64,000 nt of DNA from Myxococcales bacterium (GCA_016794525.1 JAEUJY010000077.1:173091-237090), one strand, 5' to 3'; counted from the stretch's first letter, positions 3,057-11,727 are shown. Program-made: numbers and translations. The notes: a model not told the origin generated them from the letters alone.

Positions 3057-4151
3057 CTAGCGGGTCGGCTTCGCGACCTCGCCGCACCAGTCGACGACCG
3101 CCGCCGCGGCCCCCGGCTTGGCCAGCGTGCGCATCGCGGCGCCCATCACCGCCCGGCGGTGAGGGTCGTCGAGCAGCGGCGCGATCGCGTCGCGCAGCGC
3201 GGCGGCGGTGAGGTCGGCCTGCTTGTACGACAGCGCGGCGCCGGCGGCGGCCATCTCGCGGGCGTTGATCTCCTGGTGGTTGTCGGCGGCGAACGGGTAC
3301 GGGATGAAGATCGCCGGCTTGGCGGCGATCGCCAGCTCGGCGACGGTCGTCGCGCCGGCCCGGCACACGATCAGATCGGCGCGCTCGTACTCGCGCGCCA
3401 TGTCCTTGATGAACGCGCGCACGTCGGCGGCGACGCCGGCCTCGCGGTAGCGCGCCGCGATCTTGGCCTCGTCGGCGGTGCCGGTCTGGTGGACGATCGT
3501 CAGCGGTCGGCCCTTGGCCAGCTCGATCAGCGCCTGCGACGCGAGGTCGTTGACCGCGACCGCGCCGAGCGAGCCGCCGCTCACCAGCACCGTCAGCGGC
3601 GCGTCGGCCGGGCGCTCGGCGGCGCCGGCGGCGAGCAGCCGCGCGGCCAGCTCGCGGCGCACCGGGTTGCCGGTCATCGCGACCTTCGCGGGCTTGAAGA
3701 ACCGGCGGCTCTCCTCGAACGACAGGAACACCCGCCGCACCAGCCGGCCGAGGATCTTGTTGGTGAGCCCGGGGATCGAGTTCTGCTCGCAGATCGCGGT
3801 GGGCACGCCGCGCAGCCGCGCCATCAGCACCACCGGCCCCGACGCGTAGCCGCCGACGCCGATCACCGCGTCGGGCTTGAACTGCTTGACGATCCGCCGC
3901 GCCTGCCACAGCGCGCGCGGCAGCTTGAACAGGCCCTTGATCGCGCCCAGCGCGCCGACGGTCTTGAGCCCCGACACCTGGATCGTCGCCAGCTCCCAGC
4001 CCAGCTCCGGCAGCACCCGGGCCTCGATGCCGCGCTGGGTGCCGACGAACTGCACCGCGGCGGTGGCGTCGCGCGCCTTCACTTCTTCGGCGATCGCGAC
4101 GCCCGGGAACAGGTGGCCGCCGGTGCCACCGCCGGCGATGAGGACGCGCAT
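3057..4151 (-). CDS. murG: UDP-N-acetylglucosamine--N-acetylmuramyl-(pentapeptide) pyrophosphoryl-undecaprenol N-acetylglucosamine transferase (MurG).
   Basis: The N-terminal MRVLIAGGGTGGHLFPGVAIA glycine loop, its 364-aa length, and the C-terminal GT-B motifs match MurG-family hallmarks. Confidence 0.9.
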   Translation of the reverse strand: MRVLIAGGGTGGHLFPGVAIAEEVKARDATAAVQFVGTQRGIEARVLPELGWELATIQVSGLKTVGALGAIKGLFKLPRALWQARRIVKQFKPDAVIGVGGYASGPVVLMARLRGVPTAICEQNSIPGLTNKILGRLVRRVFLSFEESRRFFKPAKVAMTGNPVRRELAARLLAAGAAERPADAPLTVLVSGGSLGAVAVNDLASQALIELAKGRPLTIVHQTGTADEAKIAARYREAGVAADVRAFIKDMAREYERADLIVCRAGATTVAELAIAAKPAIFIPYPFAADNHQEINAREMAAAGAALSYKQADLTAAALRDAIAPLLDDPHRRAVMGAAMRTLAKPGAAAAVVDWCGEVAKPTR

Positions 4152-4248
4152 GGCGCGACGCTAGCGCACGCGGATCCGTCGCGCCAATTCCCGCCCGGCG
4201 TCTCAACTTGGCGCAGCATGGCGCGGTGGCGGGTGGTACCCTGGTCGC

Positions 4249-4467
4249 GTGGCTCACGCGAACAAGATCCTCGAGGAGGCCCTCTCGCTGACCGCGGCCG
4301 AGCGGGCTCGGGTCGCGGCGAGGTTGATCGAGAGCCTGGACGACGAGAACCAGGCCGACGCCGAGGACGCATGGCGCGCCGAGGTGGCCCGACGGGTTCG
4401 CGACCTTGACGATGGCGCCGTTCTCGCGATCGACTGGCTCGAGGCTCGGCGGCAGATCCTGGGTTGA
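4249..4467 (+). CDS. Putative addiction-module antitoxin, a small acidic protein.
   Basis: The 72-aa product MAHANKILEEALSLTAAERARVAARLIESLDD... is typical of 'putative addiction module component' antitoxins. It sits 3 nt upstream of a RelE/ParE-like toxin. Its GC content is lower than its surroundings. Confidence 0.7.
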   Translation: MAHANKILEEALSLTAAERARVAARLIESLDDENQADAEDAWRAEVARRVRDLDDGAVLAIDWLEARRQILG

Positions 4468-4470
4468 GGC

Positions 4471-9239: not shown

Positions 9240-9878
9240 ATGCCTCACCGCCTCACCGCCGCCACCATCGACGACGAGGCCGCGCTGCGCGCGCTGCTGG
9301 GCGAGCCGTCGCCCCTGGTGTGCGCCAAGCTCGCCGACCGGCTGGTCGCCGAGACCCGGCCGTTCATCGAGCGCGCGCCGTTCGTGCTGCTGGCGACCAG
9401 CGATCGCGCCGGCCGCTGCGACGTCAGCCCGCGCGGCGATCCGCCCGGCTTCGTGCGCATCCTCGACGATCGCACGCTGCTCTTGCCCGAGCGGCCCGGC
9501 AACCGCCTGGCCGACTCGCTGCGCAACATCGTCGCCAACCCGCACGTCGGCCTGCTGTTCGTCGTGCCCGGCGTCGGCGACACGTTCCGCGTCAACGGCC
9601 GCGCGACGCTCACCACCGATCGCGACCTGCTGGCGCCGAGCGCCGTCGAGGGCAAGCCGCCGGCGCTCGGGATCCTGGTCGACGTCGAGGAGGCCTACAC
9701 CCAGTGCAGCAAGGCGTTCCTGCGCTCGCAGCTGTGGGATCCGACGCGCTTCGTCGATCGCGCCGCGCTGCCGTCGAGCGGCGCGATCCTGCGCGCGCTG
9801 CAAGGCGAGGGCTTCGACGCCGACGGCTACGACGCCGCGCGCGCCGAGCGCTACGCCCGCCGCGACGGCTTCTACTGA
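9240..9878 (+). CDS. Pyridoxamine 5'-phosphate oxidase-family FMN-binding protein.
   Basis: The 212-aa product contains …APFVLLATSDRAGRCDVSPRGDPPGFVRILDDRTLLLPERPGNRLADSLRNIVANPHVGLLFVVPG…, which is PPOX-class split-barrel. Confidence 0.8.
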   Translation: MPHRLTAATIDDEAALRALLGEPSPLVCAKLADRLVAETRPFIERAPFVLLATSDRAGRCDVSPRGDPPGFVRILDDRTLLLPERPGNRLADSLRNIVANPHVGLLFVVPGVGDTFRVNGRATLTTDRDLLAPSAVEGKPPALGILVDVEEAYTQCSKAFLRSQLWDPTRFVDRAALPSSGAILRALQGEGFDADGYDAARAERYARRDGFY

Positions 9879-10414
9879 CCGCTGCCGACGCGCGCGTGGT
9901 CGGGTGCGCCGTCGCCAACGACGACGTAGGCGCAGGGGGCGGCGGGGGCGGGCGCGCCGGTCGCGCCCCAGAACAGCACCGATCGCCCGGTCGCGATCAG
10001 CTGGTACGTCAACGTCGCGCCGGGCCGGGCGCGCGGCACGCCGGTGATCCGCAGGCGTAGCTTGGTCGGGTCTTCCCAGCGGACCTCGGCGAGCCCACCG
10101 TCGGGCAACGCCAGGGTCGTCGCGGCGGTCGCGGCCCGAGGCAGTGTGACCGTCGCGGCCGCGCGGACGGCCGGGCACGCGGCGAACACGTCATCGAGGG
10201 GCGCGAACCGCGGCAGCGCCGGCGGGCGCGTCGGCGCGCCGACGAACCCTGTGAAGATCGTCAGCTCGACGCCGGGCGCGGCGGGCGCGTGCGTCGCGGC
10301 GGCGGTGGGCCGCGGCGCCGTCGGCGGTGGTGGGGGCGTGCAGCCGGACGCCAGCGTCGCGGCGAGGGCGAGCGGGGTCAGCCAGCGGATCGGGGCCAGG
10401 CGAGTCGAGATCAC
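9872..10414 (-). CDS. Hypothetical lipoprotein.
   Basis: A GTG start preceded by GGAG gives VISTRLAPIRWLTPLALAATLASGC, a lipobox. The frame is consistent down to 9872. It is the C-terminal part of an artefactual 631-aa track ORF. Confidence 0.4.
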   Translation of the reverse strand: MISTRLAPIRWLTPLALAATLASGCTPPPPPTAPRPTAAATHAPAAPGVELTIFTGFVGAPTRPPALPRFAPLDDVFAACPAVRAAATVTLPRAATAATTLALPDGGLAEVRWEDPTKLRLRITGVPRARPGATLTYQLIATGRSVLFWGATGAPAPAAPCAYVVVGDGAPDHARVGSGQ

Positions 10415-10488
10415 GGGTGCTCCGGGAGCGCGGATCGGGCGGCGATGCCCGTCGGCGCAGCCCGACGCCCGAGGCGCCGCGGTTATTC

Positions 10489-11727
10489 CTAGGCGACGAC
10501 GACCTTGACCCGCTGCGGGCGCCGCTTCGCGTACTCGGCGTTGACCAGCTCGCGCTTGGGCACCGGGGGCGGGCGACGGCGGCCGACGTTCAAGATCAGG
10601 CCGGCCAGGAACATCGTCAGGATCAGCGAGGTGCCGCCGTAGCTGACCAGCGGCAGCGTGATGCCCTTGTTGGGGACCACCCCGAACACCACGCCGGCGT
10701 TGAGCAGCGCCTGCAGGCCGAACATCGAGGTGATGCCGAACGCGAGGTAGCCGCCGAAGGTGTCCCGGGCGCCCAGCGCCGCGCGCATGCCGCGCCACAC
10801 CAGCAGCACGAACAGCCCGAGGACCAGCGCCACGCCGATGAAGCCGAGCTCCTCGCCGATCGGCGCCAGGATGAAGTCGTTGTGGCCCTCGGGCATGTAG
10901 CCCAGCGACTGCCGGGAGTTGCCCAGGCCCAGGCCGGTGAGGCCGCCCGAGCCCAGCGACACGTGGGCCTGCACCATCTGGTAGGCCTCCTTGTCGCTGA
11001 AGGCCTCGGGGTTGAAGTACGCCATGAAGCGCCGCATGCGCCACGGGGTGCCGACGATCAGCTGGTAGGCCACCGGCAGCGCCGCGAGGATCGCGAGCAC
11101 GATGTAGGACACCCGCGCGCCCGCCATGAACAGCATCATCAGCGTCGTCGTGCCGAGGATGATCGACGAGCCCAGGTCGGGCTGCAGCAGCAACAGGCCC
11201 ATCATCAGCGCGCACACGACGAGGTGCGGCACGAAGCCGATCGTGAAGGTCTTCACCTTGTCGGCCTTCTTCTGCAGGCTGTGCGACAGGTAGACGATCA
11301 GCGCTAGCTTGGCGAGCTCGACCGGCTGGAACGACAGCGGGCCGATCAGCAGCCAGCGACGGGCGCCGTTGAGCGACGGCATCGCCAGGGTGGCGCCGAG
11401 CGCCAGCAGGCTGCACGCGAGCAGGGAGTAGGCGCGGTTGCGCAGCCGGCGGTAGTCGATGTGCGCCGCCGCGAACATCGCGAACGCGCCCAGCGCCAGG
11501 AACACGATCTGGCGCTTCAGGAAGAAGGCCGGGTCGCCCTTGGTCGCCATCGCCTCGGCGGCGGTCGCGGCGTAGATCTCGACGGTGCCGATGCCGAGGA
11601 GGCCGAGGATCGTGCCGATCAGCACGACGTCGTAGGGCCGCTCGCTGACGTCCTCGACGGTCGCCTGGGCGGCGAGCGGCGGCGGCGGCGGCGCGGGAGC
11701 GTCGGCGGTGAGCGAGCTGGGCAGCAC
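10489..11727 (-). CDS. ftsW: FtsW/RodA/SpoVE (SEDS) family peptidoglycan glycosyltransferase.
   Basis: The 412-aa, 10-TM protein carries SEDS signatures (…DLGSSIIL…, …GYMPEGHNDFILAPIGEELGFIGV…, …LPLVSYGGTSL…). A ftsW-versus-rodA assignment is tentative. It lies on the same strand as murG but 6.3 kb away. Confidence 0.85.
   Translation of the reverse strand: MLPSSLTADAPAPPPPPLAAQATVEDVSERPYDVVLIGTILGLLGIGTVEIYAATAAEAMATKGDPAFFLKRQIVFLALGAFAMFAAAHIDYRRLRNRAYSLLACSLLALGATLAMPSLNGARRWLLIGPLSFQPVELAKLALIVYLSHSLQKKADKVKTFTIGFVPHLVVCALMMGLLLLQPDLGSSIILGTTTLMMLFMAGARVSYIVLAILAALPVAYQLIVGTPWRMRRFMAYFNPEAFSDKEAYQMVQAHVSLGSGGLTGLGLGNSRQSLGYMPEGHNDFILAPIGEELGFIGVALVLGLFVLLVWRGMRAALGARDTFGGYLAFGITSMFGLQALLNAGVVFGVVPNKGITLPLVSYGGTSLILTMFLAGLILNVGRRRPPPVPKRELVNAEYAKRRPQRVKVVVA

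Follow-up and report, generated by a model that had tools for sequence, protein, structure and literature searches.

A widely spaced ftsW–murG pair in a myxobacterial genome as the probable product of an eroded and split division and cell wall cluster

In its canonical form the dcw cluster of bacteria, so called for division and the cell wall, runs mraZ-rsmH-ftsL-ftsI-murE-murF-mraY-murD-ftsW-murG-murC-murB-ddl-ftsQ-ftsA-ftsZ. Here we analyze a stretch of 64,000 nucleotides from a Myxococcales bacterium (GCA_016794525.1, JAEUJY010000077.1:173091-237090; hereinafter the window), in which murG (3057–4151, minus strand) and a SEDS gene identified below as ftsW (10489–11727, minus strand) share a strand but lie 6,337 bp apart, in agreement with the 6.3-kb separation reported in a preliminary description of this DNA. 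The spacer between them holds nine unrelated genes distributed over both strands, five of which are opposite in strand to ftsW and murG, and the pair is bordered by a Hanks-type Ser/Thr kinase gene past murG and a sensor histidine kinase gene beside ftsW. The preliminary description had offered two explanations for this arrangement, namely a disrupted dcw cluster or a second SEDS–MurG pair dedicated, for instance, to spore or envelope remodeling. The GC content of the window is 74.6% and most of the listed open reading frames (ORFs) are spurious; genes were called using third-position GC and then scanned with Pfam and NCBIfam profiles, and class assignments were made from NCBIfam equivalog cut-offs, scores against solved structures, and synteny. 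The top matches of the FtsW protein are metagenome-assembled genomes (MAGs) of Kofleriaceae (Myxococcota), at 63–86% identity.

The murG gene codes for a predicted lipid II synthase of 364 aa with both GT28 domains (Pfam Glyco_transf_28, 4.1e-35; Glyco_tran_28_C, 7.8e-38), which scores 321.6 bits against the MurG equivalog TIGR01133 and thereby passes its cut-off of 250.25. The closest solved structures (3S2U, 7D1I and 1F0K) are all MurG, and the motifs AGGGTGGHLFP, CRAGATTVAEL and ADNHQ align with the same motifs in 3S2U and 7D1I, the full motif set of GGTGGH loop, CRAGA.TV.E and HQ being present. We assume for these motifs the roles of their counterparts in E. coli MurG, i.e., an N-terminal glycine-rich loop and C-terminal binding of UDP-N-acetylglucosamine. 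Ratios of nonsynonymous to synonymous substitution (dN/dS) were computed against the orthologues in locus L005, which was found through a MurG scan of species-representative genomes and is part of a 790-kb contig from a MAG labeled “Myxococcales bacterium”. The ratio for murG is 0.11, and the gene appears to be the housekeeping copy, with a predicted transferase activity converting lipid I to lipid II.

The SEDS gene encodes a protein of 412 aa (FTSW_RODA_SPOVE, 1.3e-100) that passes the FtsW equivalog TIGR02614 with 361.4 bits (cut-off 337.5), whereas it fails both the spoVE model (344.3 bits, cut-off 448.8) and the rodA_shape model (276.5 bits, cut-off 336.7). Its top match among solved structures is Pseudomonas aeruginosa FtsW at 197 bits, with the RodA structures at 158–166 bits. 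The H-x-D-F motif retains its aspartate (PEGHNDFILA, aligning with PEAHTDFVFA of P. aeruginosa FtsW and FRHTDFVFS of T. thermophilus RodA), a residue that the aligned FtsW and RodA structures have in common and that we take to be catalytic. At 0.037 the dN/dS of ftsW is very low; purifying selection on both FtsW and MurG is strong, and they are among the most constrained proteins of the region. Orthologues of the window FtsW with 76% identity occupy the position between murD and murG in loci L002–L004 and L088. The gene appears, on these similarities, to be the housekeeping copy and an orthologue of the dcw FtsW, i.e., the SEDS enzyme that polymerizes peptidoglycan within the divisome.

The genomic setting was compared with that of eight related loci, which come from six further assemblies. 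The closest of them, L005, shares 98% identity with the window in both MurG and FtsW, and is collinear with window positions 3–12824 at 90–95% nucleotide identity (~92%). Past the left edge of the window, L005 continues with the same Hanks-type kinase, about 3 kb of other genes, murC, a small ORF, murB and ddl, with murC starting ~5.7 kb beyond the murG stop; by synteny, the murC of the source genome is expected just outside the window at about the same distance. The pair had been described as stripped of its dcw neighbors. This holds within the window, where 44 ORFs spread over the 64 kb were scanned with Pfam, a few short candidates falling outside the scan, and none contains another dcw domain (murD, mraY, murC or ftsI), but it would not extend to the adjoining DNA if L005 is any guide.

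The remaining relatives present variations of the same arrangement. In L001 (FtsW 85% identical) ftsW is followed by an opposite-strand epimerase-like gene, murG, a hybrid kinase and murC-murB-ddl; in L086 (84%) there are five genes between ftsW and murG, and a single gene each between murG and murC and between murC and murB-ddl. L002–L004 (76%) show murEF-mraY-murD, three genes, ftsW, four genes and murG, beyond which L002 has two genes and then murC-murB, and in L088 (76%) six genes separate murD from ftsW and eight separate ftsW from murG. The order and orientation of ftsW-murG-murC-murB-ddl are kept in L001, L005 and L086, and up to murB in L002, and the loosening also affects the murD|ftsW, murG|murC and murC|murB junctions of the relatives. 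The occurrence of 76%-identical FtsW proteins in the dcw clusters of relatives, together with the continuation of L005 to murC-murB-ddl, bears out the first of the two earlier explanations, that of a disrupted dcw cluster. Separately, one of the six genes between murD and ftsW in L088 (7559–8965) encodes a reverse transcriptase (RVT_1).

The 5′ half of the cluster was sought with the MurD of L002, and the match on the 1.1-Mb contig of L001 was chosen. This locus, L085, lies ~200 kb from the ftsW locus of L001 (GCA_041389965.1) in the opposite orientation and carries a compact rsmH-ftsL-ftsI-murE/F/mraY-murD array, beyond which the genes are unrelated and include neither ftsW nor murG. L090, from another assembly, likewise shows rsmH-ftsL-ftsI-murEF-mraY-murD followed by unrelated genes and no ftsW or murG. 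Because the 5′ half ends at murD in both L085 and L090, the cluster is split between murD and ftsW; the ftsW–murG pair of the kind seen here is the only dcw-associated one in these relatives. In the window, the ORFs that were scanned along the 52 kb lying upstream of ftsW yielded no murD or mraY domain. As an aside, a 956-aa gene in L002–L004 and L090 represents a fused MurE–MurF in the Kofleriaceae relatives, and a gene call of 1,333 aa in L085 (5944–9945), which also includes the MraY domain, may reflect either a genuine fusion of all three or the merging of separate gene calls.

To place the spacing in a wider context, the ftsW–murG gap was measured by tblastn of seven dcw proteins against all fetched loci. 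In 54 of the 55 loci of other bacteria with both genes the gap is at most 400 bp (median 85 bp). The gaps of the Kofleriaceae group are 5 bp (L007), 1.1, 2.8, 3.5, 4.5, 6.3, 6.3 (the window) and 7.7 kb. At L007, whose FtsW is 63% identical to that of the window, ftsW directly abuts murG, and at least one lineage labeled Kofleriaceae therefore retains the ancestral adjacency of the two genes. The subclade of the window is one of expanded junctions, the content of which mostly differs by lineage.

The contents of the spacer agree with the earlier inventory of a toxin–antitoxin (TA) pair, an epimerase, repeats, a CotH-lectin lipoprotein and other genes. Nearest to murG, from which they diverge across a 97-bp region, are genes for a type II antitoxin of 72 aa (4249–4467, plus strand; Unstab_antitox PF09720, 3.7e-12) and a ParE-family toxin of 96 aa (4471–4761, plus strand; ParE_toxin PF05016, 1.3e-10). 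With one orientation and a separation of 3 bp these conform to a type II TA pair, the activity of which is predicted. Their GC content at third codon positions (GC3) is 0.85 and 0.76, respectively, as compared to 0.92–0.98 for the rest of the spacer and 0.92–0.99 for the neighboring genes, and because of this deviation we regard the TA pair as foreign and more recent. In the corresponding stretch of L005 (9547–9902, compared to window 4249–4761) the toxin gene lacks ~160 bp comprising most of the first 56 codons, with only residues 57–96 being matched; the antitoxin is retained, its aa identity being 85% and its synonymous divergence (dS), at 0.65, unusually high. This looks like toxin–antitoxin decay underway.

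Next comes a gene for an NAD-dependent epimerase/dehydratase-like protein of 325 aa (4802–5779, plus strand; Epimerase PF01370, 6.3e-08; dN/dS 0.20), an orthologue of which (72% aa identity) occupies the same spacer position in the same relative orientation in L001. Beyond the repeat element described below lies a gene for a DUF2785 protein of 349 aa (6020–7069, minus strand; PF10978, 8.6e-34; dN/dS 0.23), found among the compared loci in the window and L005 only. It is succeeded by a gene for a hydrophobic membrane protein of 137 aa (7072–7485, plus strand; dN/dS 0.05), which belongs to no recognized family, yielding no match in Pfam, NCBIfam or PHROG, and has a 76%-identical orthologue within the ftsW–murG spacer of L086/L087. 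The gene after it codes for a lipoprotein of 563 aa (7486–9177, minus strand; dN/dS 0.24) combining CotH (6.4e-28), DUF4215 cysteine-rich repeat (myxo_disulf_rpt) and C-type lectin (Lectin_C, 7.9e-10) domains, again restricted among the compared loci to the window and L005. Toward ftsW there follow genes for a PPOX-type FMN (flavin mononucleotide) flavoprotein of 212 aa (9240–9878, plus strand; TIGR04025, 246.6 bits, cut-off 170; PNPOx_N; dN/dS 0.06) and, 74 bp downstream of ftsW, a putative lipoprotein of ~180 aa (9872–10414, minus strand), which was recognized from the frame plot, belongs to no known family, carries an ...LASGC lipobox, and shows ~70% identity in L005 with a dN/dS of 0.56. 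Apart from this last value, the dN/dS of the spacer genes ranges over 0.05–0.24, indicating purifying selection.

Most spacer genes differ between lineages: besides the epimerase-like gene (shared with L001) and that for the 137-aa protein (shared with L086), those of the window are common to L005 only. Even between these two close relatives there are several indels, comprising the toxin truncation, the repeat element, a glutathione S-transferase gene and a gene pair. The latter two, at L005 2918–3577 and 6235–7061, respectively, lie in the ftsW–murG spacer of L005 and are absent from the window; the products of the pair, of 82 and 194 aa, have no Pfam match. Scans of the spacer with Pfam, NCBIfam and PHROGs recovered no integrase or transposase and no family of phage structural or replication proteins; among its proteins the ParE toxin alone had a PHROG match, the family concerned being one of unknown function. 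The tRNA scan found none, a search of the whole window with Rfam at the gathering threshold gave no match, and the repeat search revealed no direct repeats flanking the spacer block. As defined by an integrase or transposase, an attachment site, flanking direct repeats and block-wide foreign composition, the spacer does not classify as a genomic island.

Of the direct and inverted repeat families found, most are low-identity GC-rich chance matches, and a hexamer inverted repeat alone is real. This intergenic element (5783–5973, with no strand assigned) consists of a 21-nt flank, CGCCGGAGGCGGTTCGAAGTC, then (CCCGTG)x6 and, on the far side of a 95-nt spacer, (CACGGG)x6; its arms, at 5811–5973, match perfectly as inverted repeats over 34 nt, and the predicted RNA fold has an energy of -180.7 kcal/mol (z = -10.7). 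The hexamer repeat also accounts for the apparent plus-strand coding signal that the frame plot gave at 5830–5950, which is an artefact. A second half-copy with the same flank is present at 27966–28029, and both copies lie shortly after a stop codon, that of the epimerase-like gene and that of a thiolase gene, respectively. At the orthologous junction L005 lacks the ~240-bp intergenic segment bearing the element in the window, and none of the 89 loci fetched by then contains it. The element may represent a small repeat that is mobile or resembles a terminator.

The flanks of the pair are each occupied by a kinase gene. As noted in the preliminary description, a Hanks-type kinase gene lies downstream of murG (625–3018, minus strand), 38 bp from its stop; the product of 797 aa, the start codon of which was set from the translation and the L005 orthologue, joins the kinase domain (Pkinase, 5.2e-46) to a C-terminal PQQ-like β-propeller (PQQ_2) and shares 89.5% aa identity with the L005 version (dN/dS 0.32). 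In the other relatives the murG|murC junction is occupied by different genes, and by this comparison the kinase is lineage-specific cargo of that junction. On the other side, a PAS sensor histidine kinase gene (11992–13035, plus strand; HATPase_c, HisKA, PAS_8) does adjoin ftsW as reported, but it is on the opposite strand and diverges from ftsW across a 264-bp intergenic region of lower GC content (0.674). Grouped beyond it at 13036–16048 are genes for a Roadblock/LC7 (MglB-like) protein, a response regulator with DUF4388 and a ParA/MinD-like ATPase, which may constitute a polarity or motility signaling module.

Taken together, we consider it highly probable that the genes in question are the ordinary, single ftsW and murG of a Kofleriaceae bacterium, situated in an eroded and split dcw cluster. 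We propose that the cluster broke between murD and ftsW, with the 5′ half (rsmH-ftsL-ftsI-murEF-mraY-murD) staying compact elsewhere, and that the 3′ half kept its order as each of its junctions gained unrelated genes singly and on both strands. The spacer would accordingly be a layered mosaic, in which the epimerase-like gene and that of the 137-aa membrane protein form an older layer, the DUF2785, CotH-lectin, PPOX and small lipoprotein genes a younger one, and the compositionally foreign ParE TA pair and the very recent repeat element further additions. Because five of the intervening genes are antisense, co-transcription of ftsW and murG would have been lost and each would use a separate promoter, probably situated, for ftsW, in the 264-bp region upstream of it and, for murG, in the 97-bp divergent region shared with the TA pair; the Hanks-type kinase, given the gap of 38 bp, could share a transcript with murG. 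The enzymes themselves would be expected to act as usual, with MurG making lipid II and FtsW, along with FtsI, polymerizing it at the septum. The simplest cause would be neutral accretion of genes at permissive junctions of a large, expanding myxobacterial genome, plus a single rearrangement between murD and ftsW.

Several points weigh against this interpretation. The existence of a single pair, the continuation into murC-murB-ddl and the distant 5′ half are extrapolated from relatives, the closest of which is ~92% identical at the nucleotide level, and all of the compared relatives are metagenome assemblies. The assignment of the SEDS protein rests on hidden Markov model cut-offs, solved-structure scores and synteny, and its score against the SpoVE model, while far below the cut-off of that model, is only 17 bits under that against the FtsW model. 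Finally, a scan of positions 2900–12100 for the sigma-70 consensus returned no promoter-like site, with terminators at chance level, a result that is uninformative for this high-GC organism.

A more pointed proposal would have the 3′ dcw junctions serve as recurrent “safe-harbor” sites in one Kofleriaceae subclade, receiving mostly lineage-specific cargo such as signaling kinases beside murG and ftsW and TA systems, with gene order and orientation being kept by selection in the absence of co-transcription. We deem this improbable, but were it true, gene order or chromosomal neighborhood, and not operon structure, would be what matters for these wall-synthesis genes, and it would suggest that some of the cargo, such as the Hanks-type kinase after murG, was recruited to regulate division.

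The notion of an accessory insert raised the prospect that a single 6.3-kb mobile island had entered once between an adjacent ftsW and murG. The ParE TA pair with its lower GC3, the repeat element with its long inverted repeats and the mostly lineage-variable cargo are what one would look for in such an island. However, the spacer genes are of unequal age, being shared variously with L001, L086 and L005; bar the TA pair, they show native composition and purifying selection; and no integrase, transposase, tRNA or flanking direct repeat was found that might have mobilized or delimited the block. Moreover, the murD|ftsW, murG|murC and murC|murB junctions are likewise loosened. The 6.3 kb of extra genes are real, but a mosaic of mixed age describes them better than one insert, and we view a single insertion as distinctly improbable.

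Still less likely is the second of the two original explanations, a specialized SEDS–MurG pair for spore or envelope remodeling that exists beside a complete canonical dcw cluster. Myxobacteria form spores, the pair lies away from murD, mraY and ftsI with kinases on both sides, and the 344 bits against the SpoVE model come near the FtsW score. Nonetheless, it is the FtsW and MurG equivalog cut-offs that are passed and the SpoVE cut-off of 448.8 that is missed, the 76%-identical orthologues reside within recognizable dcw clusters, murC-murB-ddl come after murG in L001, L005 and L086, and the very low dN/dS values are typical of essential genes. The other half-cluster, too, stops at murD without ftsW or murG in two related genomes. 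The preliminary description had itself named a shared arrangement in relatives, lacking mobile signatures, as part of the outcome that would count against it. This is essentially what the relatives display; it removes the idea of a second pair and leaves an erosion that is family-wide. That the arrangement is an assembly or binning artefact, i.e., a chimeric contig joined between ftsW and murG, is scarcely credible: although the relatives used for comparison are all metagenome-assembled and high-GC repeats can mislead assemblers, the independent L005 assembly has the same gene order at 90–95% identity, and expanded spacers recur in seven further loci from five other assemblies.

The inferred eroded cluster resembles the canonical dcw cluster in its gene set, in the order and orientation of ftsW, murG, murC, murB and ddl, and in the compactness of the 5′ half in relatives. 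It differs in the loss of contiguity, with 6.3 kb and nine genes between ftsW and murG, and in the broken murD–ftsW link; thus, as an array that should be contiguous, same-strand, tightly spaced and flanked by murD and murC, the locus is not a canonical dcw cluster. Fragmented or dispersed dcw clusters are reportedly found in many cocci, in Planctomycetes–Verrucomicrobia–Chlamydiae (PVC) bacteria and in cyanobacteria; cultured Kofleriaceae, for their part, are rod-shaped. As in those lineages, essential genes are here interrupted or dispersed with their enzymes intact, but unlike them the genes stay in order, and it is the junctions that expand, through cargo that is mostly lineage-specific. 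The source organism is presumably not an endospore former. SpoVE and the dcw-encoded sporulation SEDS proteins of Firmicutes (e.g., PMC10693644 for C. difficile) are likewise FtsW-like, as the 344 bits against the SpoVE model reflect, but the window protein falls below the 448.8 cut-off and is by synteny an orthologue of the dcw FtsW. Similarly, the MurG2-type alternative lipid II synthase (PMC8092295) is, like the window MurG, a GT28 glycosyltransferase encoded outside a tight dcw operon, but the window protein passes the MurG equivalog and is an orthologue of the murG that precedes murC as opposed to a divergent paralogue. Thus, the alternatives of a sporulation SEDS, a MurG2-type enzyme, a single island and an artefact find little or no support.

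The retrieved papers on the dcw cluster treat it as highly conserved and make no mention of Myxococcota or Kofleriaceae, and our search found no literature on dcw erosion in these groups; the main survey of the subject fell outside its coverage. On this basis, we see the finding as a further example of the known erosion of dcw clusters, with the retention of order across swollen junctions as a mildly notable feature. In practical terms, the pair should be annotated as ordinary ftsW and murG rather than as sporulation or accessory genes, and the spacer should not be annotated as a genomic island. The Kofleriaceae series of spacers, extending from 5 bp to 7.7 kb with the order kept, could be used to probe whether selection or inertia maintains the order of dcw genes, and also how essential genes acquire independent promoters when an ancient operon breaks up in genomes that are large and expanding.

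Other departures from the canonical arrangement were encountered among the fetched loci. In eight Desulfobulbales-type loci (L009, L023, L025, L029, L034, L035, L037 and L040) murD is followed directly by murG, and tblastn gave no FtsW match between the two genes or within 10 kb upstream. The Electrothrix loci L028 and L030 have 4–5 kb between murD and murG, again with no FtsW match. It seems that ftsW has left the dcw cluster in this Desulfobulbales-type group. In Myxococcales bacterium FL481 (L063), murG occurs with no other dcw gene in the 18.7 kb available, and the cluster may be dispersed in this further myxobacterial lineage. Lastly, elsewhere in the window, a gene at 37334–40153 (minus strand) codes for a protein of 939 aa with major vault protein domains (MVP_shoulder, 1.2e-25; Vault_3, 7.7e-08), homologues of which are, to our knowledge, uncommon in bacteria.

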